Assembly: GCA_947631865.1 (NCBI GenBank)
Contig: CANRNF010000003.1
Location: 16,595-80,594 of the forward strand
Source of the DNA: an uncultured Oscillospiraceae bacterium
Lineage (GTDB): Bacteria > Bacillota > Clostridia > Oscillospirales > Oscillospiraceae
Length of the DNA: 64,000 bases
Reading direction: 5' to 3'
The notes beneath the pieces are model-generated. The model worked only from the letters and a program-made list of their open reading frames with translations. It did not search any database and was not told where the DNA came from. Position numbers and translations under genes: made by a program. Below, piece after piece: positions 9,423 through 46,676 of the stretch (the stretch's first letter is position 1; each line of letters opens with the position of its first letter).

Positions 9423-9629
9423 ATGATGAACGTAAACACCATGGACACCCGGCTCAGGGCGCTTTTTGACCGCCAGAGGAAGGTCAGCGATCCGCGCATG
9501 GCGCGGCTCATCGGGGAGACAGAGACCCGGTGGGGCGCGCCCATCGCGGACGACGACCTGGGATCGGTGGCGGCGGCGGGCGACCCGGACGCAGGCCAGA
9601 GAAAAACACCCTGGGATGAGCGCAGATGA
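9423..9629 (+). CDS. Hypothetical 68-aa protein translationally coupled to the sigma factor gene
   Basis: SD GGGAGGA lies upstream. Its stop overlaps the sigma start (ATGA). No family was recognised. Confidence 0.5.
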   Translation: MMNVNTMDTRLRALFDRQRKVSDPRMARLIGETETRWGAPIADDDLGSVAAAGDPDAGQRKTPWDERR

Positions 9630-10099
9630 TGGACGGGGAAGAGCTGTACCTGCGGTACAGGGATAAGGTCCTGGCCTATATCCGCGCCAGGGTGGAAAAC
9701 GAACAGGACGCGGAGGACCTTTGCTCCACCGTCTTTATGAAGGCGTGGGCAAACCTGCCGGATTATGACGGGCAGAGGTCCTCTGTCTCCACATGGCTTT
9801 TTTCCATCGCCCACAACGCGATCATCGACTTTTACCGCGGCCGGCGGCCGGCGGCCGAATTGGACGAGACGGTGCCGGCCCCGGAGCGGGACCCGGAACT
9901 GGAGGCCCTGGCGGAGGCGCTGGAGGCCCTGCCGGAGCGGGAGCGGGACGTGATCGTGCTGTACTACTACCACGGACTGACCCTGAAGGAGATCGCGGTC
10001 CACATGCGCCTTGCCTACAGCACGGTGAAGCTCTGCCACAGCCGGACGCTGGAGGCGCTCAGACAGATGATGGGCGGAACAGAGGCCCTGAAGATATGA
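9626..10099 (+). CDS. Sigma-70 family, ECF-like RNA polymerase sigma factor
   Basis: 157 aa containing only region 2 (DAEDLCSTVFMKAW, STWLFSIAHNAIIDFYR) and region 4 (LPERERDVIVLYYYHGLTLKEIA). Confidence 0.85.
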   Translation: MMDGEELYLRYRDKVLAYIRARVENEQDAEDLCSTVFMKAWANLPDYDGQRSSVSTWLFSIAHNAIIDFYRGRRPAAELDETVPAPERDPELEALAEALEALPERERDVIVLYYYHGLTLKEIAVHMRLAYSTVKLCHSRTLEALRQMMGGTEALKI

Positions 10100-26993: not shown

Positions 26994-28463
26994 CTATTCC
27001 TTGGCGGCCGGTTCCCGGATGAGTCCGGAGGCCCGTTTCCAGCGGCCGGACAGCAGCCGGGCGGAGAAGAGGATAGAGCGCAGGGCCCAGTCGGAGCACA
27101 TGCCAATCCAGTAGCCCATAGCGCCCAGCTGCGGCATGCCGGGGATGCGGTCCGTGGTGAGGAAGAACGCCAGGGTCACCCGCATGATGAACATGGACAG
27201 CACCGAGCCGTACATCACGTATTTTACGTCGCTGGTGGCCTTCAGGATCCCCGGGGCGGTGAAGGAGAGGGGGTAGGTGAAGAACTGGACGAACAGGCAG
27301 AAATAAAGGCACTGCCGCCCAATGGCCTTCGCCTCGGCCCCGTAGCCGTAGAGCTGGGTCAAAAACGGCATGAGCGCCAGGAACGTGCCCACGCAGACGG
27401 CGTTGGTCACGTAAGATATGACCAGCATCCGCTTCATGTAATACTTGACCTGGTCCGGGTCGCCCGCGCCCACCGACTGGCCGATGACCGTGAGACAGGA
27501 GGTGCCCACGCCGCCGCCCACCACCGAGGCGAAGTTGTTGATCTGGTTGGCGATGGTGTTGCCGTTGGCCTGGATGTTGACGTGGATGAGCCTGCCGGCT
27601 TCGTCCAGGGCCGTGACGCTCTTGGGGCCGGTGGCGTACACGGCGGCGTTCACGAAGGTGTTGGTCATGAGCTTGCCCAGCTGGAACAGCGCCGACTCCA
27701 CGCCGCTGGGGATGGCCAGCTTCAGGATGCTCCTGACCATGGCGCCGTCGAAGCGGAACCGCTCGAAGACCCGCACCCGCACGGTGTTGCCCTTTTGGCT
27801 CAGCAGCGCCAGCATGAACAGCGCCGGGATGGCCCGGCAGAAGAGGGTAGCCAGCCCCGCGCCCAGAACGCCCATGCGGAGAACAAACAGAAACACCGCG
27901 TTCAGCCCGATGTTGACCACGCAGCTCATGGCCGCGCTGGCCATGGTGGAAAAGCTCTTCCGCTGGGCGCGCAGGAGCGCCGCGCAGGCGTTGAACAGGC
28001 CGATGAAGGGGAAGGAGGCGGCGGTCACGTAGAAGTAGGTCCGCTGGTAGGCGAAGGTGGAGCTGTCCACGTTCCCGTAGAAAAGCCCCAGGATGGGCTT
28101 GTTGAGGGCCAGGCAGAGAAGACCCACCCCCAGGGAGATGCACACAACCAGGGCCAGCAGCTGCTTGGCCACCTTGTTGGCACGGGGCCGGTCGCCTGCG
28201 CCCAGGGCCTGAGAGGTGACGATGGCGCCGCCGGTGGCGAAGGCGGAGAAGAGCTGGATGATGAGGTTGTTGATGTAATCCACGTTGCCGATGGCGTTGC
28301 TGGCGTTGCTCCGTACGGCCTGGGCGGCGTCGATGTTGGAGACCATCAGCGAGTCGAAAAAGCCCAGCGAGGTGGAGAATATCTGCTCTATCACGATGGG
28401 CAGCACCAGCCAGAGAAGCTGCCGCGCCGTGAAGAGCGTATATCGCTTTTTTGCCTTTCCCAT
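26994..28463 (-). CDS. MATE family efflux transporter
   Basis: About 12 TM segments with an N-terminal LPIVIEQIFSTSLGFFDSLMV MATE signature. ATG 28463 follows GGGAGGG; the track ORF starts 7 codons earlier. Confidence 0.82.
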   Translation of the reverse strand: MGKAKKRYTLFTARQLLWLVLPIVIEQIFSTSLGFFDSLMVSNIDAAQAVRSNASNAIGNVDYINNLIIQLFSAFATGGAIVTSQALGAGDRPRANKVAKQLLALVVCISLGVGLLCLALNKPILGLFYGNVDSSTFAYQRTYFYVTAASFPFIGLFNACAALLRAQRKSFSTMASAAMSCVVNIGLNAVFLFVLRMGVLGAGLATLFCRAIPALFMLALLSQKGNTVRVRVFERFRFDGAMVRSILKLAIPSGVESALFQLGKLMTNTFVNAAVYATGPKSVTALDEAGRLIHVNIQANGNTIANQINNFASVVGGGVGTSCLTVIGQSVGAGDPDQVKYYMKRMLVISYVTNAVCVGTFLALMPFLTQLYGYGAEAKAIGRQCLYFCLFVQFFTYPLSFTAPGILKATSDVKYVMYGSVLSMFIMRVTLAFFLTTDRIPGMPQLGAMGYWIGMCSDWALRSILFSARLLSGRWKRASGLIREPAAKE

Positions 28464-28604
28464 GGTAATGCCCTCCCGCGTCATGGCGGAAATGTCCCTG
28501 TTTCACCGGGGCCACCGATATGTTACAACTATTTTGCTTGATTTTCCATTGTTTTCGCTCTAAAATTACAAATAATTGAATTTTCTCAGGAAGGGAAGGA
28601 TCCA

Positions 28605-29987
28605 ATGAAGCTCCGGGAGCTTTTTACAGCCAGGGACATGACCGAGGGGGCGCCCTGGAAACGTATCATGGAATTCGCCGTGCCCATGCTCATCGGCAAC
28701 CTGGCCCAGCAGCTGTATAACACGGTGGACTCTATCGTGGTGGGCAAGTACGTGGGGGACAACGCCCTGGCGGCGGTGGGTACCTGCATGCCCATCTTCA
28801 ATCTGCTGCTGGCCGTGTTCGTGGGCGTGTCCACCGGCGCGGGCATCGTGATAAGCCAGCGCTTCGGCGCGGACGACCGGGAAGGCCTTTCCCGGGCCAT
28901 CGGCAACTGTATCACCCTCGCGGCTATCACCTCCGTGGCCACCATGGTCATCGGCGTGGTCATCACGGAACCGCTGCTGCGGCTTTTGAGCACGCCGGAG
29001 TCCGTGTTCGACTGGTGCGCGCAGTACCTCAAGATATTCTTCCTGGGGGCGGCGGGCTTTACGTATTACAACATCCTCTCCGGCATCCTCCGGGGCCTGG
29101 GGGACTCCTTCTCCGCCCTGGGGTTCCTGCTGCTGGCGACTATCCTGAACATCTTCCTGGACGTGTGGTTCGTGGCCAGCTTCGGGCTGGGCGTGCCCGG
29201 CGTGGCCCTGGCCACCATCATCGCCCAGGCCATCTCCGCGGCGTTGTGCTTCGTGAAGCTGCTGCACATGCGGGAGGTGTTCGACCTCAACTGGCATACG
29301 CTGCGCATGCGCAAGGACACGGCCTGGCGCATCATCAAGCTGGGCGTCCCCTCCGGCATCACCCAAGGCATCATGTCCGTGGCCATGCTGGTGGTGCAGT
29401 CTCTCACCAACAGCATGGGGGAGATGGTGATGGCCTGCAACGTGATCATCATGCGGGTGGACGGCTTCGCCATGATGCCCAACATGAGCTTCGGCCAGGC
29501 CATGAGCGTCTTCGCCGGGCAGAACGTGGGCGCGGGCCGCCTGGACCGGGTGGAGCAGGGGACGAAGCAGGGCGGCGCCATGGCCCTGGCCACCTCCGCC
29601 ACCATCACGGCCATACTGCTGTTCGCCGGACGGTATCTCTTTGACCTGTTCACCGACACCCCGGAACTGATGGACATGGCGGTGCGCATGATGCGTATCC
29701 TTGCGGTGGGCTATATCTGCGTCGCTGTGACCCAGGTGCTGGGCGGCGTGATGCGGGGCGCGGGGGACACCGCCACGCCCATGTGGATCACCATGATCAG
29801 CACCATCGTGCTGCGGGTGCCTATCGCCTACGGCATGGCTTTTCTCACCCGCACAGAGGCCTTCCCCAAGGGCCAGCCCCAGGCGCTGTTCGGCTCCCTT
29901 CTCATCTCCTGGGCCGTGGGCGCGCTGCTCACCTGGATCGCCTACCGCCGGGGCGCCTGGCGGAAGAAGGCTCTGATCACCAACTGA
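28605..29987 (+). CDS. MATE family efflux transporter
   Basis: 460 aa with FAVPMLIGNLAQQLYNTVDSIVVG, typical of MATE/NorM-like pumps. It is divergent from the other MATE gene. Confidence 0.85.
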   Translation: MKLRELFTARDMTEGAPWKRIMEFAVPMLIGNLAQQLYNTVDSIVVGKYVGDNALAAVGTCMPIFNLLLAVFVGVSTGAGIVISQRFGADDREGLSRAIGNCITLAAITSVATMVIGVVITEPLLRLLSTPESVFDWCAQYLKIFFLGAAGFTYYNILSGILRGLGDSFSALGFLLLATILNIFLDVWFVASFGLGVPGVALATIIAQAISAALCFVKLLHMREVFDLNWHTLRMRKDTAWRIIKLGVPSGITQGIMSVAMLVVQSLTNSMGEMVMACNVIIMRVDGFAMMPNMSFGQAMSVFAGQNVGAGRLDRVEQGTKQGGAMALATSATITAILLFAGRYLFDLFTDTPELMDMAVRMMRILAVGYICVAVTQVLGGVMRGAGDTATPMWITMISTIVLRVPIAYGMAFLTRTEAFPKGQPQALFGSLLISWAVGALLTWIAYRRGAWRKKALITN

Positions 29988-30078: not shown

Positions 30079-30140
30079 AAAACAGAAAACAGCTATTGGA
30101 TAGGCGGCGGTCATCCGCCGCAGAAGGGAGAACATCGACT

Positions 30141-32159
30141 ATGAAGATAAACCGTGTATTGGCCCTTATCCTGGCGCTGGTGATGGCGCTGGGGTGCTGC
30201 GGCACGGCCTTTGCCGCGGAGGAGGACGACGGCATCCTGGATTTTTTGCCGGAGACAAAGCCCGCGCCGGAGGACGACCTGTACGGGGCCGTGAATTTTG
30301 ATACGCTAAAGGAGAATGAGGTCCCCGCCGGCCGTAAGAGGTGGTCCCCCGATGTGGCCAACGACCTGGAGATCACCGAAGAACTCAACGAGATGCTGGA
30401 CGAGTATGTGGCCAACGCCGGGACTTACGAGAAGGGGACGCCGGAGCAGAAGATCGCGGACCTGTACCTGTCCTACGTGGACGAGGAGAGCCGTAACGCC
30501 ACCGGCATTGAGCCCATCCGTCCCTATCTGGACGCCATCAACAGCGCTTCGACCATCCAGGAGTATGTGGAGGCCATCGCCGCCATGGGCGGTGAGATCA
30601 GTTTTTACAGCCTGCTGTATTTCAGCGTGAGCGTGGATCTTTACGATTCCACCCACTATGCCCTCTATGCGAACCAGGCGGACCTGGGCCTGGGAAAGGC
30701 ATACCTGGAGGACGAGAGCATGTCCTCTTACTGGGATATCTATAAGACCCTGGTCACGAAGCTGTTCGTGCTGTACGGCCTGAGCGAGGAAGAGGCCGCC
30801 GAAAAGACCGAAAACGTCGTCAGCCTGCAGACCAAGCTGGCCGCGTCCACGCTGTCCGAGGCGGATATGTACGACTATTCCAAGGCGTACCAGCCCATGA
30901 GCATGGACGAGATGACGGCGCTGCTGCCTACCGTCGATATGGGGCCGGTGCTGGAGGCCTTCGGGGTATCCGGGGCCGAGCAGGTCGTGGTGACGGATAG
31001 AGGTCAGCTGGAGGCCATCGGCCAGGTGCTCACCGAGGAGAATCTGCCGCTTTTGAAGGACTTCTCCACCGCCACGCTGCTGAAGGATATGGCGCCTTAC
31101 CTGGGCATGGACTACCGGCAGGCGTCGCAGGATTACTCCACAGCCATGAACGGCGTCACCCCCAAGGAGCTGCCGGAGGCGGCCAAGGACTCGGTGGAGT
31201 CGACCCTGGAGTGGGATTTTGCCAAGCTCTATGTGGAGAAGTATTTCCCCGAGGAGAGCAAGCAGTATGTGCTGGACATGACGGACGAGATCATTGCCTG
31301 GTTCGAGCAGCGCATCGACGAGTTGGACTGGATGGGCGACGAGACAAAGGCGGCCGCCAAGAAGAAGCTGGACACCCTGAACGTGAAGATCGGCTACCCT
31401 GACAGCTATGATTTCGTGTCGTATCTGGACGATGTGGAGTACGTCTCCCCGGCGGACGGCGGCAGCCTCATCGAAAACAAGCTGAATGAGTCCAGGGTCT
31501 ACGCCGCGTACAGCCACAGCCTACTGGGGCAGGAGGTGGATAAGTCCGCCTGGGGCATGACGCCTCAGACTGTGAACGCCTACTATAGCCCCACCGCCAA
31601 CGAGATCGTGTTCCCCGCGGGCATCATCCGGGGCGCGTTTTACGATCCCGACGCCAGCCGGGCGTACAACCTGGGCGGCATCGGCGCGGTCTTCGCCCAC
31701 GAGCTGACCCACGCCTTCGACAGCTCCGGCGCCCAGTTTGACGAGAACGGCAACCTGAACATGTGGTGGACCGAGGAGGACTACGCCAACTTCACGGCGC
31801 TGCAGCAGGATGTCATCGACTATTATGAGGCTTTCGAGCTGACGGACGGCATCGACCTCAACGGCGAGCTGACCCTGACGGAGAATATCGCCGACCTGGG
31901 CTCGCTGCACTGCGTGGCGGAGCTGTGCGGGGACGACCCGGAGGCCCTGCGGGAGCTGTTCGAGGCCTATGCCGCGTCCTGGGCCGAGAAGGCGCCCCGG
32001 GAGGTGTACGACAATTGGAGCCGCACGGACACCCACGCTCCCGGCATAGCCCGGACCAACGCGGTGGCCAGCTCCACCGAAGAGTTCTACGAGGCCTATG
32101 ACGTGCAGGAGGGCGACGGCATGTACGTGGCCCCCGAGGACCGGGTCTGCATCTGGTAA
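30141..32159 (+). CDS. M13 family zinc metallopeptidase lipoprotein, copy 2
   Basis: 672 aa from ATG 30141, with lipobox MALGC, HELTHAF and TENIADLG. It is colinear and roughly four-fifths identical by eye to copy 1. Confidence 0.88.
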   Translation: MKINRVLALILALVMALGCCGTAFAAEEDDGILDFLPETKPAPEDDLYGAVNFDTLKENEVPAGRKRWSPDVANDLEITEELNEMLDEYVANAGTYEKGTPEQKIADLYLSYVDEESRNATGIEPIRPYLDAINSASTIQEYVEAIAAMGGEISFYSLLYFSVSVDLYDSTHYALYANQADLGLGKAYLEDESMSSYWDIYKTLVTKLFVLYGLSEEEAAEKTENVVSLQTKLAASTLSEADMYDYSKAYQPMSMDEMTALLPTVDMGPVLEAFGVSGAEQVVVTDRGQLEAIGQVLTEENLPLLKDFSTATLLKDMAPYLGMDYRQASQDYSTAMNGVTPKELPEAAKDSVESTLEWDFAKLYVEKYFPEESKQYVLDMTDEIIAWFEQRIDELDWMGDETKAAAKKKLDTLNVKIGYPDSYDFVSYLDDVEYVSPADGGSLIENKLNESRVYAAYSHSLLGQEVDKSAWGMTPQTVNAYYSPTANEIVFPAGIIRGAFYDPDASRAYNLGGIGAVFAHELTHAFDSSGAQFDENGNLNMWWTEEDYANFTALQQDVIDYYEAFELTDGIDLNGELTLTENIADLGSLHCVAELCGDDPEALRELFEAYAASWAEKAPREVYDNWSRTDTHAPGIARTNAVASSTEEFYEAYDVQEGDGMYVAPEDRVCIW

Positions 32160-32180: not shown

Positions 32181-32216
32181 AAGAGGCCATCCCGGTATGG
32201 GGACGGCCTCTTTTTT
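32181..32216 (+). terminator. Rho-independent terminator after M13 peptidase 2
   Basis: Stem AAGAGGCC/GGCCTCTT followed by a T6 run. Confidence 0.65.
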
Positions 32217-32239: not shown

Positions 32240-32308
32240 AAAAATCAGGTTTGATTACGAAAACGTCAGAGCCTCCTTGTTGAGGAGGGCATTTTGTTAT
32301 GATAAAAT
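32240..32308 (+). promoter_or_regulatory. LytTR-type direct-repeat box R4 plus -10 upstream of the partner-switching/export operon
   Basis: AAAAATCAG at 32240-32248 and AAAACGTCAG at 32260-32269. TAAAAT at 32303-32308 lies 33 nt after the second repeat. Confidence 0.55.
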
Positions 32309-32542
32309 ATATCAATAACTATTATGGGGGAGAGCGGGGAGATGGAGAAGACACGGGTGTCCTCTGTTGTCCATAAGCTGCCATCCCCGGGGCGTGCGAA
32401 ATAGTGATATTGACTATAAAATCATCGTTGCGGTATGAGCAAAATTGATGTAAAATAATATTAAAGTGACTTCCGGCTGGATGTACAGCCTGGACAGGCC
32501 GGAAGACGGAAACAAAGTTATAATCATTAGGAGGCAACAACA

Positions 32543-32839
32543 ATGACCATCACGAAAAACCAGAACGGGACCCATCTTGATCTGGCCCTGGAGGGCCGGC
32601 TGGATACCACCACCGCGCCCCAGCTGGAGGCGGAGCTGAAGCAGAGCGTGAACGGCGTCACGGAGCTGGCGCTGGATTTCAGCAAGCTGGAGTATCTGTC
32701 CTCGGCCGGCCTGCGCGTGCTTTTGAGCGCCCAGAAGGTCATGAACCGGCAGGGGTCCATGGTGATCAAGAACGTGAACGAGACCATCATGGAGATCTTT
32801 GAGGTCACCGGCTTCTCGGATATTTTGACCGTCGAGTAA
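32543..32839 (+). CDS. STAS-domain anti-sigma-factor antagonist (SpoIIAA/RsbV-like)
   Basis: 98 aa with the LEYLSSAGLRVLL phosphorylation-loop motif. Confidence 0.85.
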   Translation: MTITKNQNGTHLDLALEGRLDTTTAPQLEAELKQSVNGVTELALDFSKLEYLSSAGLRVLLSAQKVMNRQGSMVIKNVNETIMEIFEVTGFSDILTVE

Positions 32840-32851
32840 GAACGAGCAAGC

Positions 32852-34600
32852 GTGTCAACGACGATGGAAGACGAGAACATCCTGATACAGAACGAGGAGT
32901 TTCTGGAAAAAACATACCGCGCGGCGCTGTGGCCGGGGATGTTGTCGATCTTGAGCGGCTGCGTAAATATCATTGCGGACGGGGTCCTGGTCGGCCAGAA
33001 GATCGGTGCGGGAGGCCTTGCGGCCATCAACCTCTGCGTGCCGGTCTATCTGGCTCTGTGCATCGTGGGCTCCTTCTTCGTGTCCGGCGCGGCGATCTGC
33101 AGCTCCAGGGAGATCGGCGCCAACCGCCGGGACAAGGCGGGCCTGTATTACCGCTATGCAGTGACGCTCTGTTTGATCGCCTCTGTCTTCATGACAGCCG
33201 TGGGCATTCTGCTGATCGATCAGATCGCGGCTTTTCTGTGCCGCGACAGCGAGATCCTTCCGATGGTGAAGGACTATGCGCTGGTCACGCTGGCGGGCGC
33301 GTTCCCAAAGATCTTTCTGTATGTCCCGTTCTGGTATCTGCGCCTGGACGGGCGGAACAAGACCGTGACCGTGATGATGACGATCATGGGCGCGGGGAAC
33401 GTGGCGCTGGACTTCGCCTTCCTGTACGGACTCGATATGGGCGTCTTTGGCGCGGCGCTGGCCAGCGTCATCGCGACGGCCGTGGCGTGCGTGATCGGTT
33501 TCGCGGGCCTTCACCGTGGGACCTTCCATTTCAAGCCGGGTCCGGCGCTCCCGGGGAGAGAGGAATTCCGGGAGATGTCTGTGGCGGGAAGCCCTGCCGC
33601 GATGAACAACCTGGTCCAGACACTGCGCCTTCTGTGCGTGAACGGCCTGCTGCAGAAATACGGCGGCAGCATGATGCTGGCGGAGTTTTCCGTGCTGAAC
33701 GGGATCAGCGCCTTTGCTGAGGCCGTGACGGTGGGCGTTCCCCAGGCAGGCACGGCGATGATGGGTGTCTACCGGGGCGAGAGGGACAACGAGAGCATCT
33801 GCATCCTGCTGAAGCTGGAGCTGAAAAAGGGCGTCCTGTACAGCCTGGTATTCAGCGCGGTCATCGTGCTGGGGGCAGACATCATCGCGGCGGCCTACGG
33901 CCTGGCGCAGCCCATGCGCTTCCCCATGCTGTGCCTTGCCATCAGCCTGATCCCCTCCCTGTGGAACAACGTGCTGTCTTCCTATTACAGCGTTTCGGGC
34001 CACGCGGGGCTGTCCAACCTGATCATCATCCTCAAGTCCTATGTGTTCGCGGCGCTGAGCCTGCTGGCTCTGCTGGCGTCCGGGATAACGCCGTGGCTGT
34101 TCCTCACGGCGGGCGAACTGCTCACGGTGTGTGTGTGGTATCTCATCACCGGGATCCTGCACCGCCGGAGCGAGATGACCAGCCGGTATTTTCTCATGGA
34201 TCAGACGCTGGAAAAGGCGGGCCAGGTCATCAACTTCTCCATGATCAGCGATAACGAGAAGATCTGCGAGGCCAGTGAGAGGATCACGGATTTCTGCCAG
34301 GAAAACGGGATGCAGGCCAAGCAGGTGATGCGGGTGAGTCTGGCGCTGGAGGAGATGATGACGCTCATCACGAGCATCAACGACCCCCAGCGGATCCTGT
34401 TTGACATCCGGGTGTACGCCGTGCCCAGCGAGACCGGCATCCGCATCCGCTATAACGGGAAAAAGTTTGACCCGCTCCTGTCCGGGGATGGCGGGGACGA
34501 CGACATGCTCTATATGGGCATGCGGATGCTGCAAAAGCTGGTGAAGAAGGTGGATTACCAGGACACGTTTGGGATGAACACGCTTCTGATCGTGCTGTGA
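32852..34600 (+). CDS. MATE-like polytopic transporter fused to a C-terminal RsbW/SpoIIAB-like (HATPase_c_2-type) domain, apparently degenerate
   Basis: The first ~440 aa hold about 12 TM segments. The C-terminal ~130 aa align with the C-terminal domains of the genes at 36266 and 47330 but lack a clear N-box Asn and G-box. The start is GTG 32852 or ATG 32864. Confidence 0.6.
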   Translation: MSTTMEDENILIQNEEFLEKTYRAALWPGMLSILSGCVNIIADGVLVGQKIGAGGLAAINLCVPVYLALCIVGSFFVSGAAICSSREIGANRRDKAGLYYRYAVTLCLIASVFMTAVGILLIDQIAAFLCRDSEILPMVKDYALVTLAGAFPKIFLYVPFWYLRLDGRNKTVTVMMTIMGAGNVALDFAFLYGLDMGVFGAALASVIATAVACVIGFAGLHRGTFHFKPGPALPGREEFREMSVAGSPAAMNNLVQTLRLLCVNGLLQKYGGSMMLAEFSVLNGISAFAEAVTVGVPQAGTAMMGVYRGERDNESICILLKLELKKGVLYSLVFSAVIVLGADIIAAAYGLAQPMRFPMLCLAISLIPSLWNNVLSSYYSVSGHAGLSNLIIILKSYVFAALSLLALLASGITPWLFLTAGELLTVCVWYLITGILHRRSEMTSRYFLMDQTLEKAGQVINFSMISDNEKICEASERITDFCQENGMQAKQVMRVSLALEEMMTLITSINDPQRILFDIRVYAVPSETGIRIRYNGKKFDPLLSGDGGDDDMLYMGMRMLQKLVKKVDYQDTFGMNTLLIVL

Positions 34601-34610
34601 CAGACGCGAT

Positions 34611-36269
34611 ATGGTGGGAAAGGAAAGTATGACAGAAGAAACAGGGCTCCGGCGCATGGAGGCCGTGTGCGGCGACGCCGTCCGTGTGCAGGAGCGGTTC
34701 CTGATGGAGCTGCTGGAGCGCAACGCGCAGACAGAATACGGAAAGAAGTGGGGCTTTTCCGGCCTTCGCACCGTAGAGGACTACCGAAAGCAGGTGCCCC
34801 TGTCCCGGTATGACGACTATGAACCGCTTATAGAGCGCCAGATCGGGGGAGAAAAAGGGCTTCTGACAGCCGATGAGCCGGTGTTCTACTGCATCAGCGC
34901 GGGCAGCACCTCCCAGCCGAAGTATGTGCCCATCACCCAGCGGGATGTGACGGTCCACCGGATATACCTGTTGGATGCAGTGCAGGACGTCATCTGGAAA
35001 GAGCTGGCGGGCCTCCCGGACGAGAAGCTGTTTGGCAGGATCTTTGAGACCGGCGAGTTTTACCGCACCGCCATGCCGGACGGCACCATGAACGGCGTGC
35101 GCTCCGGCGTGCTGATGCGGTGGCTGGAATCGAGAGACGAGATCGACTTCTCCGAATATACCTCACCCCGAAAGGTGATGTTCCCGGAGAAGATGGAGAA
35201 TATGCTCTACGTGAAGCTGCGCTTCGCTCTGGCCTGCCGGGATATCACCGCGATCCACGGCGTTTTCGTGCATGGGATGGTGCAGATGTTCCAGTACCTT
35301 CAGGAGCGCTGGGACGGGTTCGTGGAGGACATTGCCAGCGGAGAGGTCAGCGATCGCTTCCAGATCAGCGAACAGTGGAAGCGCTACATAAAAGAGCGCC
35401 TGGCGCCGGACCCCGGGCGGGCGGAGGAACTGCGGTCCGCGACGAAGGACGGCGCTTCGGGGCTCGTGCGCCGGATATGGCCGGAGCTTCGGTATATCCG
35501 CATGGCAGGGGGCAGCATCTTCCAGGGGTACATGGATGAGCTGCGGGTATTCATCGGCGATCTGCCCATCCACTTCTACGCCTACGCCTCCTCGGAGAGC
35601 ACCTTGGGCGCGGTCTACACGCTGCAGGAGGAGGATGCCCGCTATGTGCTGATCCCGGAGTCCTGCTTCTTTGAGTTCCTTCCGGAGGGAGAGACTGGAG
35701 AGCGGGCGCTGACGTTCCGGGAGGTGGAGGCCGGGAAGAGCTACGAGCTTGTCGTTACCACCCTGTCCGGCCTTTACCGATACATGATGGGGGATGTCGT
35801 GGAGGTGACGGGTTTCTACGGCGAGGCGCCGATCATTCGCATGAGCCGCCGGAAGAGTCAGGTGCTCAACGTGGCGGACGAGAAAATGGATATGCGGCAG
35901 ATGGAAAGGGCGATGCGGCGGTTTGAGCGGCTTTCGGGTTGTCTCCTGGAGGGCTACTGCGCGGACACGGGCTTTCGTGGATCTACGCCGTACTATTCGG
36001 TGTATCTGGAGCCGAAGACAGGAGCGCTGCCAGCGGATGCAGAAACACTACTGGACGACTGCCTCCGTGACAGCTGCTTCGGATACAAAGGCGCCCGGGA
36101 ACTGGGGCAGATCGGCGACGTGCGGGTGCTGCCCTTACAAAAAGGCGCTTTCGCGGCGTACCGTGAATTCCTGGCGGGGAAGGGATTCCGCATGGAACAG
36201 AATAAACCCATTCATATCCTTCAGACCGAGGAGCAGAAAGACTTTTTTAAGGGAGAGGCAGTGAGATGA
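34611..36269 (+). CDS. GH3 family (acyl-acid amido synthetase-like, adenylating) protein
   Basis: The N-terminus FL.ELL.RNAQTEYGKKWGF...VEDYRKQVPLSRYDDYEPLI and SAGSTSQPKYVPIT are characteristic of bacterial GH3 proteins. An alternative start is at 34629. Confidence 0.7.
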   Translation: MVGKESMTEETGLRRMEAVCGDAVRVQERFLMELLERNAQTEYGKKWGFSGLRTVEDYRKQVPLSRYDDYEPLIERQIGGEKGLLTADEPVFYCISAGSTSQPKYVPITQRDVTVHRIYLLDAVQDVIWKELAGLPDEKLFGRIFETGEFYRTAMPDGTMNGVRSGVLMRWLESRDEIDFSEYTSPRKVMFPEKMENMLYVKLRFALACRDITAIHGVFVHGMVQMFQYLQERWDGFVEDIASGEVSDRFQISEQWKRYIKERLAPDPGRAEELRSATKDGASGLVRRIWPELRYIRMAGGSIFQGYMDELRVFIGDLPIHFYAYASSESTLGAVYTLQEEDARYVLIPESCFFEFLPEGETGERALTFREVEAGKSYELVVTTLSGLYRYMMGDVVEVTGFYGEAPIIRMSRRKSQVLNVADEKMDMRQMERAMRRFERLSGCLLEGYCADTGFRGSTPYYSVYLEPKTGALPADAETLLDDCLRDSCFGYKGARELGQIGDVRVLPLQKGAFAAYREFLAGKGFRMEQNKPIHILQTEEQKDFFKGEAVR

Positions 36270-38293
36270 AAAAGAAGAACCGCAGACTGGCGGTAGTGAT
36301 GGTCGCGAGCATCGTGGCAGTCATCGTGATCCTGAGCGTGATCGTGGCGATGACGGGCTACCAGCAGTTCACCAATGTGCTGGAGCAGCAGTACAACGAC
36401 ACCGCCTATGAGGTGGCGGAGACGGCGCTGACCTATCTGAACCCGGACAAACTGGAGGGGTACCTGCAGACGGGGCAGACGGACGAGGAGTACGACGCCA
36501 TCCTGGCGCGTCTCGACGATCTGGTGGTGAGCAGCAACTGTAATTTCATCTACGTGGCGAAGATAGACGAGACGGATTACATGACGACCACCTACATCTA
36601 CGATTCCGTTAACCCTGCCACAGGCTTCAGCCGCTATGAATTCGGCTATGTCTCCCGGGACGTTGACCCGAACTATGTGGACGACCTGAAGCATATCCTG
36701 ACCACGGGCGGCCGCGCGGAGAAGTATCTGTACTCTTATACCGAGTCCGGCGCGCACACCACGGCGGGTCTTGCGGTGAAGGATTCCACTGGCAAAGTAG
36801 TGGCTGTGATCGGCGTGGAGAAATCCATGACCGTCCTCTACGGCGCACGGAGCACCTATATCCTCTGGGTCGCATCCATCGCGGCGGCGATTGTGGTCCT
36901 GACCCTGCTGGTCTACCTGCTGTGGCTGAACGGCAAGGTGATCCGGCCTATCGCGGAGATCACCGGCGAGGCACAGCGTTTCGCCATCGACGGAGAGAAC
37001 CCGGCGACGAGTCTGAAGGCCACGGAAAACCGTTACGAGATCGGTGTGCTGGCGTCCTCTATCCTGAAGATGGAGGCGGAGATCAAACAGTATATCGACA
37101 ACCTGACCGCCGTGACAGCGGAGAAGGAGCGCATCGGCGCGGAGCTGGACATCGCCACCCACATCCAGGCCTCCATGCTGCCCTGCATCTTCCCGCCCTT
37201 CCCTGATAAGCCGGAGGTGGATATCTACGCCTCCATGAACCCGGCCAAGGAGGTGGGCGGCGACTTCTACGACTTCTTCATGGTGGACGACACCCACCTG
37301 GCCATCGTCATGGCGGACGTGTCCGGCAAGGGCGTGCCCGCGGCTCTGTTCATGGTCATCGGAAAGACCCTCATCAAGGACCACACCACCCCGGGCCGGG
37401 ACCTGGGCGAGGTATTTATGGAGGTCAACAAGCTCCTGTGCGAGGGCAACGGCGAGGAGCTGTTCATCACCGCCTTCGAGGGCGTGCTGGACCTGGAGAC
37501 CGGCCAGTTCAACTTTGTGAACGCCGGGCATGAGATGCCCTTCATCCGCCGGAAGGGGAAGTATACGCCGGAGAAGATACGGGCCGGATTCGTCCTGGCA
37601 GGCATGGATATGACCCGCTACCGCATGGGTTCCCTGCAGATGGAGCCTGGGGACGCGATCTTCCAGTACACGGATGGCGTGACCGAGGCGACGAACGGCC
37701 AAAACGAGCTGTACGGCATGGAGCGGCTGGAGGCGGTGCTGAACAGGAACGCGGATGCCTCCCCCGATAAGCTGCTGCCGGCGGTGAAGGCGGACATCGA
37801 CGCCTTCGTGGGCAGCGCGCCCCAATTCGACGACATCACCATGCTGTGCTTGGAGTATAAGAAAATGATGAATGCATCCGATCCCAACGAGATGACCGTG
37901 GAGGCCACCTTGGAGAACATCCCCGCCGTGACGGCCTTTGTGGACGAGCGGCTGGAGGCCCTGGACTGCCCCATGAAGGCCCAGATGCAGATCGACGTGG
38001 CCATCGACGAGCTGTTCAGCAACATCGCCCGGTACGCCTACGACCCCTCCGGCCCGGCGACTGTACGGGTGGACGTGGACCAGAATCCCCTGGCGGTGCG
38101 CATCACCTTCATCGACCACGGCAAGCCCTACGACCCCCTGGCCAAGGAGGACCCGGACGTGACCCTCTCCGCGGAGGATCGCCAGATCGGCGGCCTGGGC
38201 ATCTTCATGGTGAAGAAGTCCATGGACGATGTGCGCTACGAGTACAAGGACGGCCAGAACATCCTGACCGTGGAAAAACGCCTGGAGACGTGA
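36266..38293 (+). CDS. Membrane sensor PP2C (SpoIIE/RsbU-type) phosphatase with C-terminal RsbW-like kinase domain
   Basis: An N-terminal TM, an extracytoplasmic domain and a second TM are followed by ELDIATHIQASMLP...EVGGDFYDFF...MADVSGKG (PP2C). The C-terminal domain has DELFSNIARYA and GGLGIFMVKK boxes. Confidence 0.8.
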   Translation: MKKKNRRLAVVMVASIVAVIVILSVIVAMTGYQQFTNVLEQQYNDTAYEVAETALTYLNPDKLEGYLQTGQTDEEYDAILARLDDLVVSSNCNFIYVAKIDETDYMTTTYIYDSVNPATGFSRYEFGYVSRDVDPNYVDDLKHILTTGGRAEKYLYSYTESGAHTTAGLAVKDSTGKVVAVIGVEKSMTVLYGARSTYILWVASIAAAIVVLTLLVYLLWLNGKVIRPIAEITGEAQRFAIDGENPATSLKATENRYEIGVLASSILKMEAEIKQYIDNLTAVTAEKERIGAELDIATHIQASMLPCIFPPFPDKPEVDIYASMNPAKEVGGDFYDFFMVDDTHLAIVMADVSGKGVPAALFMVIGKTLIKDHTTPGRDLGEVFMEVNKLLCEGNGEELFITAFEGVLDLETGQFNFVNAGHEMPFIRRKGKYTPEKIRAGFVLAGMDMTRYRMGSLQMEPGDAIFQYTDGVTEATNGQNELYGMERLEAVLNRNADASPDKLLPAVKADIDAFVGSAPQFDDITMLCLEYKKMMNASDPNEMTVEATLENIPAVTAFVDERLEALDCPMKAQMQIDVAIDELFSNIARYAYDPSGPATVRVDVDQNPLAVRITFIDHGKPYDPLAKEDPDVTLSAEDRQIGGLGIFMVKKSMDDVRYEYKDGQNILTVEKRLET

Positions 38294-38306
38294 AAGGGGA
38301 GACACC

Positions 38307-39488
38307 ATGAGCTTAGCAGAGGGGAAGTTTGAAAACGGCGTTCTGACGGCATCTCTCATCGGACACATCGACTCCGGCAACGCCGCCCAGGCGGAGCGGG
38401 AGCTGAACGAACTGCGCCAAAAGACCCCGGAAGCGGCGGCCGTGGTGCTGGACTTCGAGCGGCTCCAGTACATATCCAGCGCGGGCCTGCGGATCATTCT
38501 GCGGCTGCGGAAGGACCGGCCTGAGCTGAAGATCGTGAACGTGTCGCCCGAGGTATATGAGATCCTGGACATGACCGGCTTCACAGAGATGATGCCGGTA
38601 GAGAAGGCCTACCGGCGGCTGAGCGTGGATGGCTGTGAGGTCATCGGTCAGGGCGCCAACGGCCAGGTCTATCGCCTGGACCCGGATACCATCATCAAGG
38701 TGTACCTGAATCCGGACAGCCTGCCGGACATCCACCGGGAGCGGGAACTGGCCCGCCGGGCCTTCGTGCTGGGCATCCCTACCGCCATCCCCTACGACGT
38801 TGTAAAGGTGGGGGAGGGCTATGGCTCCGTGTTCGAGCTTCTGAACGCCAAGAGCCTGGCCAAGCTCATCATCGCCGAGCCGGAGAAGCTGGACGAGTAC
38901 GTGCAGGTCTATGTGGACCTGCTGAAAAAGATCCACAGCACCGAGGTGCAGCCCGGAGACATGCCGGATATGAAGGCGGTGGTCCTTGGCTGGACGGATT
39001 ATCTGAAGGATCACCTGCCGCCGGCGCAGTATGAAAAGCTCCACGGGCTGATCGAGGCGGTGCCGGAGGACCACCACATGCTCCACGGCGACTACCATAT
39101 AAAAAACGTCATGGTCCAGAACGGCGAGGTGCTGCTCATCGACATGGACACCCTGTGCATGGGTCACCCCGTGTTTGAGTTCGCGTCCATATTCCTGGCC
39201 TACCAGGGCTTCGGGGAGCTGGACCACAGTGAGACGGAGCGGTTTTTGGGCGTGAGCCATGAGACGGGCGCGGCCATCTGGAACAAGACCCTCCGGCTCT
39301 ACTTTGGCACAGAGGACCAGGCCGAGCTGGACGCCGTCGCCGACAAGGCCAAGGTCGTTGGCTACACCCGGCTCCTGCGGCGGACCCTCCGCCGGAAGAG
39401 CGGCACCGCCGACGGTCAGGCCATCGTCGCCAACTGCAAGGCCCGGCTGGCGGAGCTTTTGGAGCGGGTCGATGCGCTGACATTCTGA
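38307..39488 (+). CDS. STAS domain fused to an aminoglycoside-phosphotransferase/choline-kinase-like (APH fold) kinase domain
   Basis: The N-terminus has LQYISSAGLRIILRL (STAS). The C-terminus has HGDYHIKNVMV...LIDMD (HxDxxxxN...D kinase motifs). Confidence 0.7.
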   Translation: MSLAEGKFENGVLTASLIGHIDSGNAAQAERELNELRQKTPEAAAVVLDFERLQYISSAGLRIILRLRKDRPELKIVNVSPEVYEILDMTGFTEMMPVEKAYRRLSVDGCEVIGQGANGQVYRLDPDTIIKVYLNPDSLPDIHRERELARRAFVLGIPTAIPYDVVKVGEGYGSVFELLNAKSLAKLIIAEPEKLDEYVQVYVDLLKKIHSTEVQPGDMPDMKAVVLGWTDYLKDHLPPAQYEKLHGLIEAVPEDHHMLHGDYHIKNVMVQNGEVLLIDMDTLCMGHPVFEFASIFLAYQGFGELDHSETERFLGVSHETGAAIWNKTLRLYFGTEDQAELDAVADKAKVVGYTRLLRRTLRRKSGTADGQAIVANCKARLAELLERVDALTF

Positions 39489-39527: not shown

Positions 39528-40004
39528 ATGGACAACGGACTGTTTCGTCAAAAGAGCCTGGACAAGGTGTCCAGCCCAGAGCAGATGAACGACTATATCC
39601 GGGTGACCAGTCCCGGGGTGTGGCTGATCCTGGCCGCGGTGATCGCGATCCTGGCCGGACTGCTCATCTGGTCCGTGCTGGGCCGGCTGGAGACCACGGT
39701 GCCGGCGGCGGCGGTGGCCGGGCCGGACGGAGCGGCGGTGTGCTACATCGATGAGGGAGACCTCTCCTCCGTGCACGCGGGCCAGACGGTGCATATCGCA
39801 GGGATCGATTATGCTCTGTCCGAGGTGGCGGCCAAGCCTGTGGTCGTAGACGAGAGTTTCGACGCCTACGCCCTGCACGTGGGCGGCCTGGAGGCCGGCC
39901 AGTGGGTGTACCCTGCGGAGCTGGACGGGACGCTGGACGAGGGGATCTACGAGGCGAAGGTCGTGGTGGACAGCGTTTCTCCCATCTCGTTCCTGCTGAA
40001 TTGA
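39528..40004 (+). CDS. Short HlyD-like/NHLM-type bacteriocin secretion accessory protein
   Basis: The N-terminus FRQKSLDKVSSPEQMNDYIRVTSPGVWLIL plus a single TM resembles the start of NHLM-system HlyD homologues. It is only 158 aa. Confidence 0.55.
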   Translation: MDNGLFRQKSLDKVSSPEQMNDYIRVTSPGVWLILAAVIAILAGLLIWSVLGRLETTVPAAAVAGPDGAAVCYIDEGDLSSVHAGQTVHIAGIDYALSEVAAKPVVVDESFDAYALHVGGLEAGQWVYPAELDGTLDEGIYEAKVVVDSVSPISFLLN

Positions 40005-42200: not shown

Positions 42201-44399
42201 ATGGGATGGTTTGACGAACAAATAAGAGAACGCCGGCGCCAGGACCAGCAGGCATTCGAGGAGAGTTTCGCCTCCATCGCGGGGGCCGTGCTGGGCCGCC
42301 GGGTCATGCCCGGCGACGACAGCCAGCAGGCCAGAAGCGCCATGGAGGAGATCCTGCGCTACTACCACGCCAAACCCCGGGAGATGCCCGACACGGTGAA
42401 GGACTTCAACGAACAGCTGGAGTTCATGCTGCGGCCCTACGGCATCATGCGCCGGACGGTGACGCTGGAGAAGGGGTGGTACAAGGACGCCATCGGGGCC
42501 ATGCTGACCCGCCGGAAGGAGGACGGCGCCCTCACGGCCATGATCCCCACGGGCCTCACCGGCTACACCTACGCCGACCCGGCCACAGGCAAGCGGCAGC
42601 GGGTGAATGCCCGGACAGAGGAGCTTTTTGAAAGAGAGGCCATCGCCTTCTATAAGCCATTCCCCCAGGGGAAGATCGGCATCCCCGGCCTCATGCGGTA
42701 TATAGCCGCCTGCACCTCTTGGGCGGACCGGATCTTCTTCGCCCTGTCCGCGCTGGCGGTGTCTCTGGTGGGACTGCTGCTGCCCCGGCTCAATAACCTC
42801 CTGTTCTCCCGGGTCACGGACAGCGGGAGCGTGGTGGTTCTGGCGGCGCTCATCTCCTTCATGCTGCTGGTGACCGTGAGTTCCAGGATCCTGGAGGTAG
42901 TGAAGCAGCTGCTCACCACACGGATGAACACAAAGGTCTCCGTGTCGGTGGAGGCCGCGGGTATGATGCGGCTTTTCTCCCTGCCTGCCAACTTCTTTAA
43001 ACAGTACAGCACCGGCGAGATCGCCACCCGCTGCATGAATATCAAGCAGCTGGCCTCCTTGCTGGTGTCCTCGGTGGCCGCGGTGGGGCTGACCAGCCTG
43101 TTCTCCCTGCTGCAGATCACCCAGATCTTTGCTTATGCACCGGCGCTGGTGGTGCCGGCGCTGGCCATCGTGGCCGTGACGATGGTGTTCTCGGTGCTCA
43201 CGTCCATCCGCCAGAAGGGCATCACCCAGCAGATGATGGAGCAGAGCGCCAAGGAGACCGGCCTTACCTACGCCCTCGTCAGCGGCGTGCAGAAGGTGAA
43301 GCTCTCCGGCGCGGAGAAGCGGGCCTTCGCCAAGTGGAGCGAGCAGTACGCCAAGGTGGCGCGGCTGCAATATGACCCGCCCATGTTCTTGAAGGTGAAC
43401 AGCGTCATCAGTACGGCCATCACCCTCGTCGGCACACTGGTGATGTACGCTGTGGCGGTGGAGAGCGGCGTGTCCGTTTCGGAATACTACGCCTTCAACT
43501 CCTCCTACGCCATGATCAGCGGCGCTTTTATGTCCCTGGCCGGCATCGCCTCCATGGTGGGCCAGATCATCCCCATCCTCAATATGGCCAAGCCCATACT
43601 GGACACGGAGCCGGAGATCAGCTCCGACAAGCAGGTGGTGGAGCGCATCAGCGGCGGCATCGAACTCAATAACGTCTCCTTCCGCTACTCGGAGGATATG
43701 CCCAACGTGGTGGACGACATGAGCCTCAAGATCCGGCCGGGCCAGTACGTGGCCATCGTGGGCCGGACCGGCTGCGGCAAGAGCACGCTCATGCGGCTGC
43801 TGCTTGGTTTCGAGACGCCCCAGAAGGGCGCCATCTACTACGACGGCCGGGACATGGCCGGTCTGGACCTGAAGAGCCTGCGCCGGCGCATGGGTGTGGT
43901 GATGCAGGACGGGAAGCTCTTCCAGGGCGATATCTACTCCAACATCACTATCTCCGCGCCCTGGCTCACCATGGACGACGCCTGGGAGGCGGCGGAAATG
44001 GCGGGCATCGCCGAGGACATCCGGCGCATGCCCATGGGGATGCACACCCTGATCTCCGAGGGAAGCGGCGGCATCTCCGGCGGCCAGCGCCAGCGGCTGC
44101 TCATCGCCCGGGCCATCGCTCCCAAGCCCCGCATCCTCATGTTCGACGAGGCCACCTCGGCCCTGGACAATATCACCCAGCGGGTGGTGTCCGAGTCTTT
44201 GGATCAGCTGAAATGCACCCGTATCGTCATAGCCCACCGGCTCAGCACCATCCGCCACTGCGACCGGATCATCGTCCTGGAGGGCGGCCATATCGTGGAG
44301 GACGGCACATACGAGGAGCTCATCGCCAAACACGGCTTCTTCGCCGAGCTGGTGTCCCGGCAGCGCTTGGACACGGATACATCCTCGGACGGCAAATAA
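42201..44399 (+). CDS. Second bacteriocin-export ABC permease/ATPase lacking the peptidase domain (NHLP/NHLM-type partner)
   Basis: 732 aa with a non-peptidase N-terminal domain, a TMD, GRTGCGKST, ISGGQRQR and LMFDEATSALD. Confidence 0.85.
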   Translation: MGWFDEQIRERRRQDQQAFEESFASIAGAVLGRRVMPGDDSQQARSAMEEILRYYHAKPREMPDTVKDFNEQLEFMLRPYGIMRRTVTLEKGWYKDAIGAMLTRRKEDGALTAMIPTGLTGYTYADPATGKRQRVNARTEELFEREAIAFYKPFPQGKIGIPGLMRYIAACTSWADRIFFALSALAVSLVGLLLPRLNNLLFSRVTDSGSVVVLAALISFMLLVTVSSRILEVVKQLLTTRMNTKVSVSVEAAGMMRLFSLPANFFKQYSTGEIATRCMNIKQLASLLVSSVAAVGLTSLFSLLQITQIFAYAPALVVPALAIVAVTMVFSVLTSIRQKGITQQMMEQSAKETGLTYALVSGVQKVKLSGAEKRAFAKWSEQYAKVARLQYDPPMFLKVNSVISTAITLVGTLVMYAVAVESGVSVSEYYAFNSSYAMISGAFMSLAGIASMVGQIIPILNMAKPILDTEPEISSDKQVVERISGGIELNNVSFRYSEDMPNVVDDMSLKIRPGQYVAIVGRTGCGKSTLMRLLLGFETPQKGAIYYDGRDMAGLDLKSLRRRMGVVMQDGKLFQGDIYSNITISAPWLTMDDAWEAAEMAGIAEDIRRMPMGMHTLISEGSGGISGGQRQRLLIARAIAPKPRILMFDEATSALDNITQRVVSESLDQLKCTRIVIAHRLSTIRHCDRIIVLEGGHIVEDGTYEELIAKHGFFAELVSRQRLDTDTSSDGK

Positions 44400-46603: not shown

Positions 46604-46619
46604 ACGTTTTTTCGCCGGC

Positions 46620-46656: not shown

Positions 46657-46676
46657 TAAGCGGAAGGAGGACGGCC

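Follow-up and report, generated by a model that had tools for sequence, protein, structure and literature searches.

Predicted RsbW-fold pseudokinase domains on transporters and a candidate sigma-free partner switch in gut and rumen Clostridia

Partner switching is textbook sigma-factor control, and a few sigma-free cases, which the proposed switch resembles, are known: SiaABCD, HsbA, SypA, BtrV and Anabaena All4160. The last of these has been described as a sigma-free partner switch (10.64898/2026.04.08.717354). We analysed a stretch of 64,000 nucleotides (the window) from an uncultured Oscillospiraceae bacterium (assembly GCA_947631865.1, contig CANRNF010000003.1, positions 16,595 to 80,594 of the forward strand). 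Five packed genes on its plus strand (32543-39488; intergenic gaps of 10-13 bp and one 4-bp overlap) encode partner-switching proteins together with a MATE-family transporter and a GH3-family synthetase. The MATE protein and an ABC importer encoded elsewhere in the window both end in a domain with a predicted RsbW fold, named here MATE_C and ABC_C. The features of this system are as follows.

32543..32839, plus strand: single-domain STAS protein (RsbV/SpoIIAA-like), 98 residues; Pfam STAS 57.5 bits, TIGR00377 72.6 bits against a cutoff of 53.45
32852..34225, plus strand: MATE-family membrane domain (residues 1 to ~458) of a 582-residue protein (gene 32852-34600); Pfam MatE 73 bits, in two stretches
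34226..34600, plus strand: C-terminal domain of the MATE protein, predicted RsbW-fold pseudokinase (MATE_C); HATPase_c_2 27.8 bits for the isolated domain (gathering score 27.4)
34611..36269, plus strand: GH3-family adenylating acyl-acid amido synthetase, 552 residues; Pfam GH3 N, M and C 224, 87 and 44 bits, above gathering scores
36266..37858, plus strand: membrane sensor PP2C phosphatase part; Pfam SpoIIE 150 bits, NCBIfam SiaA 61.8 bits (residues 199-529, below cutoff)
37901..38293, plus strand: RsbW-type serine kinase domain, fused in frame to the PP2C; HATPase_c_2 78 bits (residues 546-670), PDB RsbW 6m36 E = 5.5e-4
38307..39488, plus strand: STAS domain (residues 9-100, YISSAGL) plus APH/choline-kinase-fold phosphotransferase (residues 111-393), 393 residues; Pfam STAS 54.5 bits, APH 62.4 bits
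47696..50728, minus strand: single-chain polar-amino-acid ABC importer, residues 1-1011 of 1132; SBP_bac_3 198, BPD_transp_1 72 and ABC_tran 126 bits
47330..47695, minus strand: C-terminal domain of the importer, predicted RsbW-fold pseudokinase (ABC_C, residues 1012-1132); AlphaFold model and hhalign

Profile searches revealed a complete partner-switching set in the window: a STAS protein with conserved serines, a kinase of the RsbW type that keeps its motifs, and a PP2C phosphatase. The YLSSAGL motif of the STAS protein is predicted to hold the phosphorylatable serine (S53/S54), and among STAS sequences from related loci Ser53 was kept in 58 of 60 and Ser54 in all 60. Phosphatase and kinase form a single protein of 675 residues (36266-38293), for which hydropathy predicts a first transmembrane segment at residues 9-27, an outside loop of about 170 residues (~28-197), a second transmembrane segment at residues 198-216, a HAMP-like linker and a catalytic domain at residues 341-531. 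The first-pass annotation, made from the DNA letters alone, had placed an RsbW-like domain with intact boxes on this membrane phosphatase, and we found the N box (DELFSNIARYAY), G1 (IDHG) and G2 (GGLG) all preserved; 54 kinase orthologues share the motifs DELFxNIAxYAY (N box), ID.G (G1) and IGGLG (G2). That annotation had also described an operon that starts with a STAS protein and ends with a STAS–kinase fusion. The operon does start and end with such plus-strand genes, but the kinase part of the closing fusion is of the APH/choline-kinase type and not of the RsbW type, with the APH catalytic motifs HGDYHIKN (HxDxxxxN) and IDMD (DxD). The STAS motifs YLSSAGL and YISSAGL that it quoted are both present, as are its other peptides. 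The STAS–APH protein scored 110 bits with TIGR02172 against a cutoff of 228 and therefore does not belong to that paralogue set; its own family is highly conserved and comprises at least 8000 clusters.

To compare the three tails, those of the MATE protein, the PP2C and the importer, we built a MATE_C profile from the window sequence and 118 homologues (119 sequences) and searched it against 789 six-frame open reading frames (ORFs) of the window. Only two tails were matched, near full length: that of the PP2C with E = 1.8e-6 and that of the importer with E = 6.3e-5; the next match had E = 2. Alignment of the families with hhalign gave a probability of 98.9% (E = 1.3e-17) for MATE_C with ABC_C, 95% (E = 4e-8) for the locus kinases with MATE_C and 98.2% (E = 4e-14) for the locus kinases with ABC_C. 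These values are well above chance, in agreement with the earlier claim that the three C-terminal domains align with each other. AlphaFold models of the MATE and ABC tails, built from family alignments, matched SpoIIAB, RsbW, UsfX, SiaB and Rv1364c in the PDB (E = 1e-7 to 1e-5, TM-scores ~0.6-0.77), with histidine kinases ranking lower. For MATE_C (predicted local distance difference test, pLDDT, 86.8), the top Foldseek matches were SpoIIAB and RsbW at E of about 1e-7; for ABC_C (pLDDT 93.7), the top 22 PDB matches were all RsbW-type kinases. Searches of PDB sequences with the MATE_C and ABC_C profiles returned no significant match, such that the kinship is visible only through Pfam, hhalign and fold comparison. 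HATPase_c_2 was matched by 35 of 38 MATE_C homologues; the window ABC_C had no Pfam match, yet 9 of 47 members of its family matched HATPase_c_2. After profile and structure comparison, all three tails are assigned to the RsbW/SpoIIAB fold, including the minus-strand importer tail that the annotation had called a third homologous copy. The outcome named there as a refutation, tails without a GHKL/RsbW fold, did not occur.

Only the PP2C tail has intact N, G1 and G2 motifs. In MATE_C, the N-box Asn is replaced by Leu60 and the G1 Asp by Tyr89, and of G2 only the last Gly is left, which fits the degenerate N and G boxes noted at first pass. Its orthologues have Leu, Val or Ile at the Asn site and mostly Tyr at the Asp site, and all 100 of 100 carry Glu56. 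The boxes of the window ABC_C are degenerate too: Gln60 stands in place of the N-box Asn and Trp91 in place of the G1 Asp, with the N-box Glu kept, and Glu56 is the only invariant column across the ABC_C family. We classify MATE_C and ABC_C as putative pseudokinases because the ATP-binding Asn and Asp are lost; judged from these sequences, it is very unlikely that either binds ATP. As read from the alignments, the former active-site face of both domains is still under selection.

The hydrophobic segments of the MATE protein cover residues 24-436 by crude hydropathy, and its TIGR00797 score (111 bits, below the cutoff of 147) marks it as a member of a divergent MATE subfamily. Hundreds of full-length homologues (~578 residues) are found in gut and rumen Clostridia, annotated as 'hypothetical' or 'Na+-driven multidrug efflux pump'. 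These were recovered with the whole protein as query; a word-indexed homologue search with the 137-residue MATE_C domain alone found none. The importer gene (47330-50728, minus strand) encodes three SBP_bac_3 domains, a permease, a GlnQ/TcyN-like ATPase and the tail of ~120 residues. The NCBIfam models TcyN, EhuA and GlnQ scored ~285-289 bits on it, and all equivalog models were below their cutoffs. An exhaustive phmmer search found 246 representative ABC_C proteins among 1.84 billion, and in the best 150 of these 246 the domain lies C-terminal to a GlnQ-type ATPase wherever upstream sequence is present. The hosts are stand-alone ATPases of about 364 residues or fused importers of 900-1160 residues, and the database contains fusions of 1120-1161 residues that resemble the window importer. 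A LysR regulator gene (50871-51755, minus strand) lies on the same strand as the importer, just beyond its start codon.

To survey the MATE–pseudokinase fusion phylogenomically, we scanned GTDB species genomes and confirmed 113 loci; 80 of them were retained, and 52 have full flanks. Genes at these loci were counted with profiles built on the window proteins. An exact-sequence look-up of the PP2C–kinase protein of the window returned no record; the window genome is outside that collection, and its nearest relative is locus L010. At least 80 Clostridia species have a cassette of STAS, MATE plus pseudokinase, GH3 or GNAT, membrane PP2C and RsbW kinase; Anaerotruncus colihominis DSM 17241, Otoolea muris, Petralouisia muris and Lachnospiraceae bacterium 3-1 are among the carriers. 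Among the 52 full-flank loci, PP2C adjoins the MATE gene in all 52 and GH3 does so in 44; the RsbW kinase is present in 43; a STAS gene is present in 40 and immediately precedes MATE in 27. The presence of STAS goes with that of the kinase (38 loci with both, 7 with neither, 2 with STAS only and 5 with kinase only; Fisher p = 1.7e-4). By these gene neighbourhoods, the transporters are linked to STAS, PP2C and kinase genes far beyond chance. We consider the anatomy and distribution of the system to be solid.

The GH3 gene, situated between MATE and PP2C, was absent from the first-pass account. Six loci of a divergent branch that lack GH3 (L062, L078, L084, L076, L080 and L085) have a gene for a protein of ~190 residues in its position, and the three such proteins tested (L062:10427-11020, L078:10427-10993 and L084:10437-11012) all matched the Pfam GNAT acyltransferase family. 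Judged by gene order, GH3, or GNAT instead, is a core member of the cassette. Because GH3 and GNAT enzymes both form amides, the cassette may produce an amide conjugate and export it. A GH3 fold in bacteria has a precedent in OlsH, an ATP-dependent N-acyl-amino-acid synthetase that makes N-acyl ornithine; its authors also point to the occurrence of N-acyl amino acids in gut Clostridia (PMC12493201). However, the window GH3 scored only 87 bits with the OlsH model against a cutoff of 620, and is therefore not an OlsH orthologue.

The ABC_C-bearing importer recurs in the same surroundings. In 11 of the 80 loci, despite the rarity of its family, it is encoded no more than 10 kb from the MATE gene, and it often shares the MATE operon (L016, L044, L053, L065, L067 and L081). 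In Otoolea muris the gene order is SBP (substrate-binding protein)–permease, ATPase plus ABC_C, STAS, MATE, GH3, PP2C and kinase, and in L081 a STAS gene is directly upstream of an importer of 1138 residues. We also obtained ABC_C contexts free of MATE by exact-protein look-ups, in which one contig was too short to tell. One of these reads SBP–permease, ATPase plus ABC_C, STAS, SpoIIE and HATPase_c_2; a second has a STAS gene two genes upstream; and a third, on a short contig, has a SpoIIE gene directly upstream. On this evidence from gene order, the ABC tail is part of the same system as the MATE tail.

A related domain is found on a third transporter superfamily. SDF (sodium:dicarboxylate symporter) proteins of 526-545 residues in related loci carry an N-terminal extension of ~125 residues, which matched the MATE_C profile in 4 of 5 proteins (E = 5e-9 to 2e-5; background of 1043 ORFs). 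The symporters with the extension are the following.

L075:12538-14145: SDF symporter with extension
L086:170-1756: SDF symporter with extension
L086:4705-6285: SDF symporter with extension
L094:1462-3060: SDF symporter with extension
L096:7507-9144: SDF symporter with extension

One such module reads SDF, STAS, SpoIIE plus HATPase_c_2, HD_4 and STAS–APH. The STAS–APH gene recurs in modules of STAS, PP2C–kinase and SDF, which makes it a regular companion of such modules. In the SDF-type modules, a gene for a small HD_4 protein (RelA/SpoT-type HD hydrolase-like; L094:5430-5996, L095:2650-3216 and L096:5424-6011) stands immediately before STAS–APH; it is absent from the window. Upstream of the cassette in L041 (5698-6936) is another STAS–enzyme fusion, in which STAS is joined to a leucine-carboxyl-methyltransferase-like (LCM) domain.

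The first-pass annotation had described the RsbW-like domains of the module as fused rather than free-standing. This does not hold in general: of the 43 kinase-bearing loci among those with full flanks, the kinase gene is free-standing in 39 and fused to PP2C in 4. In L001, L002 and L003, whose MATE proteins are 88%, 88% and 69% identical to that of the window, the phosphatase (536 residues) and kinase (139 residues) are encoded by two genes overlapping by ATGA, and a 5-nt difference from L001 at the junction joins the two frames in the window. We rejected a sequencing frameshift as the origin of the fusion: the 5-nt difference is accompanied by nearby substitutions, and the same 675-residue fusion is present in L010, an independent rabbit-gut Oscillospiraceae metagenome-assembled genome that is 95.4% identical in nucleotide sequence over 17.6 kb. 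By this comparison, the PP2C–kinase fusion of the window is recent and lineage-specific. Fusions of PP2C with kinase are common elsewhere, as in Rv1364c (3ke6) and the SDF-type modules.

We propose, and give an even chance to, a partner switch that lacks its own sigma factor, in which unphosphorylated STAS would dock on the transporter-borne pseudokinase domains and the outputs would be the transporters. This suggests that the switch controls transport directly and not transcription. In the proposed cycle, the RsbW-type kinase would phosphorylate the STAS serine, and an outside cue sensed by the membrane PP2C would lead to STAS dephosphorylation. Unphosphorylated STAS would then leave the kinase and dock on the pseudokinase domains through their former active-site face, where the retained Glu pair would repel phospho-STAS, and docking would turn transport on or off. 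An amino acid would be imported by the ABC importer, or by the SDF symporter in relatives; GH3, or GNAT in some lineages, would join it to an acid; and MATE would export the conjugate. STAS–APH may serve as a second, enzyme-bearing STAS partner, and STAS–enzyme fusions (STAS–APH and STAS–methyltransferase) could use the same docking site. Consistent with this proposal, hydropathy and the established topology of MATE, ABC and SDF proteins predict a cytoplasmic location for the PP2C and for every RsbW-fold domain. A wider version of the proposal is more tentative, and we place it somewhat below an even chance: the RsbW-fold pseudokinase would be a portable STAS receptor grafted on at least three transporter superfamilies (MATE at the C terminus, ABC at the C terminus of the ATPase and SDF at the N terminus), so that one serine switch under outside control would act after translation to gate the import, conjugation and export of a small amide metabolite in many gut and rumen Clostridia.

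Several observations weigh against STAS docking on the transporters. The ATP lid is shortened in MATE_C and deleted in ABC_C, and in SpoIIAB this lid is reportedly part of the STAS contact surface (literature on 1TH8 and 1TID). The window importer lies 8 kb from the operon, on the opposite strand and without an adjacent STAS gene, and one further ABC_C context has neither STAS nor PP2C nearby. In addition, 7 of the 52 full-flank loci keep GH3, PP2C and a MATE_C with every conserved residue in place, yet neither STAS nor kinase lies within 10 kb there. In those seven loci, either STAS and kinase are elsewhere in the genome or the partner of MATE_C is the PP2C itself. The second option is the basis of the main rival explanation, which we judge unlikely: the pseudokinase domain would bind and regulate the adjacent PP2C in the manner of RsbT, the transporter would report its transport state as a 'transceptor', and STAS and kinase would work further downstream, on a different target. 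The sigma-B literature has established that in Bacillus the RsbW paralogue RsbT binds a PP2C and activates RsbU. PP2C is the only partner found next to the MATE–pseudokinase gene in 52 of 52 loci, it is what remains beside the fully conserved MATE_C in the seven loci, and the importer on the short contig has only SpoIIE directly upstream. However, the PP2C has no RsbU-type N-terminal RsbT-binding domain, its N terminus being a membrane sensor; the STAS–kinase pair would have no output wherever a locus is devoid of a sigma gene; and STAS genes stand directly beside pseudokinase-bearing transporters in many loci.

A second MATE paralogue is present upstream in many loci, mostly of Lachnospiraceae (L015, L018, L021, L025-L027, L030-L032, L034, L035, L037-L039, L042, L045 and L065; for example, L027:5835-7592). 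Its C-terminal domain keeps the N-box Asn and the G1 Asp, and the main group of these paralogues keeps the G2 glycines as well (EEIAANIVQYGY, RDDG, VGGIA). From these motifs, active and dead forms of the transporter-fused domain possibly coexist. A gene of about 1900 residues resembling non-ribosomal peptide synthetases is nearby in 17 loci.

Such coexistence of competent and dead versions speaks for another reading, in which the pseudokinase domains would bind the active RsbW kinase or each other, and so recruit or dimerise the kinase without binding STAS directly. RsbW and SpoIIAB are dimers, with which the tails share a fold and a dimer-forming family, and a kinase gene accompanies 43 of the 52 loci. 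We nevertheless regard this pairing as quite unlikely, as it leaves unexplained why the N-box Glu and the active-site surroundings are invariant while the ATP ligands are lost.

SpoIIAB- and RsbW-type anti-sigma factors act on group-3 sigma factors. We found no group-3 sigma factor in the window cassette or in the most widely shared gene clusters of the loci, among which the only sigma family is ECF (extracytoplasmic function)-like. The window has one member of this family.

9626..10099, plus strand: ECF-like sigma factor with regions 2 and 4 only; Pfam Sigma70_r2 and r4

The annotation had suggested that the module may control this sigma factor, a link that proved weak. The gene is 23 kb from the module, inside a cluster of double-glycine-leader peptides, and orthologues adjoin the module in only 5 of the 80 loci (L056, L058, L061, L062 and L084). 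As a candidate target of the module it was ranked low, being rare at the loci, distant, outside the sigma class that RsbW-type proteins are known to bind and a fellow traveller of peptide clusters. Had the classical scheme been retained, the transporter-borne domains would be tethered anti-sigma factors that sequester the 9626 sigma factor and its orthologues until STAS releases them. The five adjoining orthologues belong to the same subfamily (31-48% identity), and an unrelated ECF sigma gene follows the ABC_C importer in L093, as this scheme would allow. However, regions 2 and 4 are all that this sigma factor has, in contrast to the group-3 sigma factors bound by SpoIIAB and RsbW types; its association with double-glycine-leader peptide clusters could itself explain the adjacency; and neither the MATE-free ABC_C module nor the SDF modules have a sigma gene. 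We give the tethered anti-sigma scheme very little probability.

The surroundings of this sigma gene form a distinct neighbourhood. About ten small ORFs (60-113 residues) lie between 9206 and 12682 on the plus strand, with a leader of the form ENKKS.EELADEALDKVAGG or ...LDGVAGG (double-glycine cleavage type) and Cys-rich cores. From its sequence, this run looks like an array of precursors of a bacteriocin or a ribosomally synthesized and post-translationally modified peptide (RiPP). It is flanked by a LytTR regulator (6970-7707), an AgrC-like HATPase_c_5 kinase (7704-9089), the ECF-like sigma factor and a C39-like peptidase (13407-14201).

Downstream, the module runs into three further genes in the same orientation, identified by Pfam and NCBIfam matches.

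39528-40004, plus strand: short HlyD/NHLP-secretion-like protein, 158 residues
40012-42186, plus strand: ABC exporter with C39 peptidase domain
42201-44399, plus strand: second ABC exporter

The HlyD-like gene starts 39 bp past the fifth module gene, and the exporter gaps are 7-14 bp; the three genes may be co-transcribed with the module, and their membership of the system is uncertain. The same short HlyD-like gene accompanies the module, no more than 10 kb away, in 8 further species loci, and the pair of C39-ABC exporters stands beside it in all three maps inspected (L062, L081 and L084). The association recurs, but it is a minority pattern. These genes raise the possibility that the cassette is an accessory to bacteriocin or RiPP production or immunity, in which the PP2C would sense a peptide, MATE and GH3 would modify or export the product, and the tails would be incidental. 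Besides the short gaps (7-39 bp) and the eight other HlyD-like genes, this account draws on double-glycine-leader peptides, LytTR/AgrC-like two-component genes or YcaO/radical-SAM genes near several loci. Its probability seems small to us: the association holds in only about 10-15% of loci, and ABC_C and SDF modules occur without peptide machinery. A peptide role would also be compatible with STAS docking on the transporters, as it concerns the physiological role and not the mechanism.

Comparison with known systems shows which parts of the proposed switch are familiar. As in the Bacillus modules RsbU/RsbV/RsbW–sigmaB and SpoIIE/SpoIIAA/SpoIIAB–sigmaF, it combines a phospho-serine STAS protein, a GHKL serine kinase of the HATPase_c_2 type and a PP2C, and the best structural matches of the tails are SpoIIAB, RsbW and UsfX. 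Unlike those modules, the window cassette has no group-3 sigma factor, dead copies of the kinase fold sit on transporters, and the PP2C is a membrane sensor. SiaABCD of Pseudomonas aeruginosa is similar in having no sigma factor, a membrane HAMP–PP2C (the below-cutoff SiaA match of the window PP2C), an RsbW-like kinase, SiaB (Foldseek match 6kko), and a small phospho-protein whose binding target is not a sigma factor. The SiaC target, however, is a diguanylate cyclase without an RsbW-like domain, whereas the presumed targets here are transporters with an RsbW-fold docking domain of their own. Rv1364c of Mycobacterium tuberculosis (PDB 3ke6, a Foldseek match) likewise has a PP2C (RsbU) and an RsbW kinase in one chain; unlike the recent, lineage-specific fusion in the window, it adds PAS and STAS domains and regulates SigF.

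Transporters regulated by small proteins offer further parallels. In inducer exclusion in E. coli, the phosphorylation state of the small protein EIIAGlc decides its binding to the C-terminal regulatory domain of MalK, the ATPase of an ABC importer. This is a working analogy only, as the folds and the phosphotransferase system (PTS) relay are unrelated. In E. coli MlaFEDB, the single-domain STAS protein MlaB binds and regulates the ABC transporter ATPase MlaF (PMC7367683); there, MlaB contacts the ATPase domain itself, and Mla has no phosphorylation cycle, RsbW-fold domain, PP2C or kinase. SLC26/SulP transporters carry a C-terminal STAS domain (PMC8256260), an arrangement of which the present one is the inverse: here the RsbW-fold partner is on the transporter, and STAS occurs alone or as an enzyme fusion. 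In the open-access literature searched, no account of MATE, ABC or SDF transporters with RsbW-like domains turned up. The apparent novelty is thus a dead RsbW-fold domain built into transporters as a presumed docking site, which was found neither in the known systems compared nor in that literature.

The DNA upstream of the operon contains the following elements.

about 32187-32215: terminator hairpin of the preceding M13 peptidase gene, seen by reading the sequence
32280..32308, plus strand: promoter-like site TTGAGG, 17 nt, TG-TAAAAT, in an AT-rich stretch upstream of the operon; consensus scan and sequence reading, a weak pattern match only
32530-32535: ribosome-binding site AGGAGG ahead of the STAS gene, from sequence reading

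The 5' leader of the STAS gene contains an inverted repeat, CTTCCGGC...GCCGGAAG (32470-32505, plus strand), with no Rfam match. An Rfam scan upstream of the operon found neither a riboswitch nor any other RNA, and so gave no ligand clue for the module from RNA.

Two paralogous M13 peptidase genes are present on the plus strand (4682-6700 and 30096-32159), the second directly upstream of the module, and one M13-type segment of the related locus L006 has about 82-83% nucleotide identity to both. A few kilobases upstream lie divergent MATE/MurJ-like genes without an RsbW-fold tail (26994-28484, minus strand, and 28605-29987, plus strand), and a Fic-domain gene (26299-26904, minus strand). Farther upstream, the plus strand encodes two Sel1-repeat proteins, one of 1783 residues with 34 repeats (17430-22781) and one of 420 residues with 8 repeats (23783-25045), and positions 14259-17222 encode a protein of 987 residues without a Pfam match. 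An ORF of 432 residues (45305-46603, plus strand), situated past the exporter genes and before a NUDIX gene (46563-47255), has a high third-position GC content of 0.90 and no Pfam match.

Post-translational regulation of bacterial transporters is poorly understood. The cultured carriers Anaerotruncus colihominis DSM 17241, Otoolea muris and Petralouisia muris make the proposed model testable. If the model is true, it would point to an amide metabolite, made by GH3 or GNAT, under signal-controlled export, and would account for thousands of genes annotated as 'anti-sigma factor antagonist' or 'SpoIIE' where the genome has no matching sigma factor. The combination of a transporter-borne dead RsbW-fold domain with neighbouring STAS, PP2C and kinase genes would then be a general and readily spotted signature of transport under a phospho-switch in the abundant Clostridia of gut and rumen.

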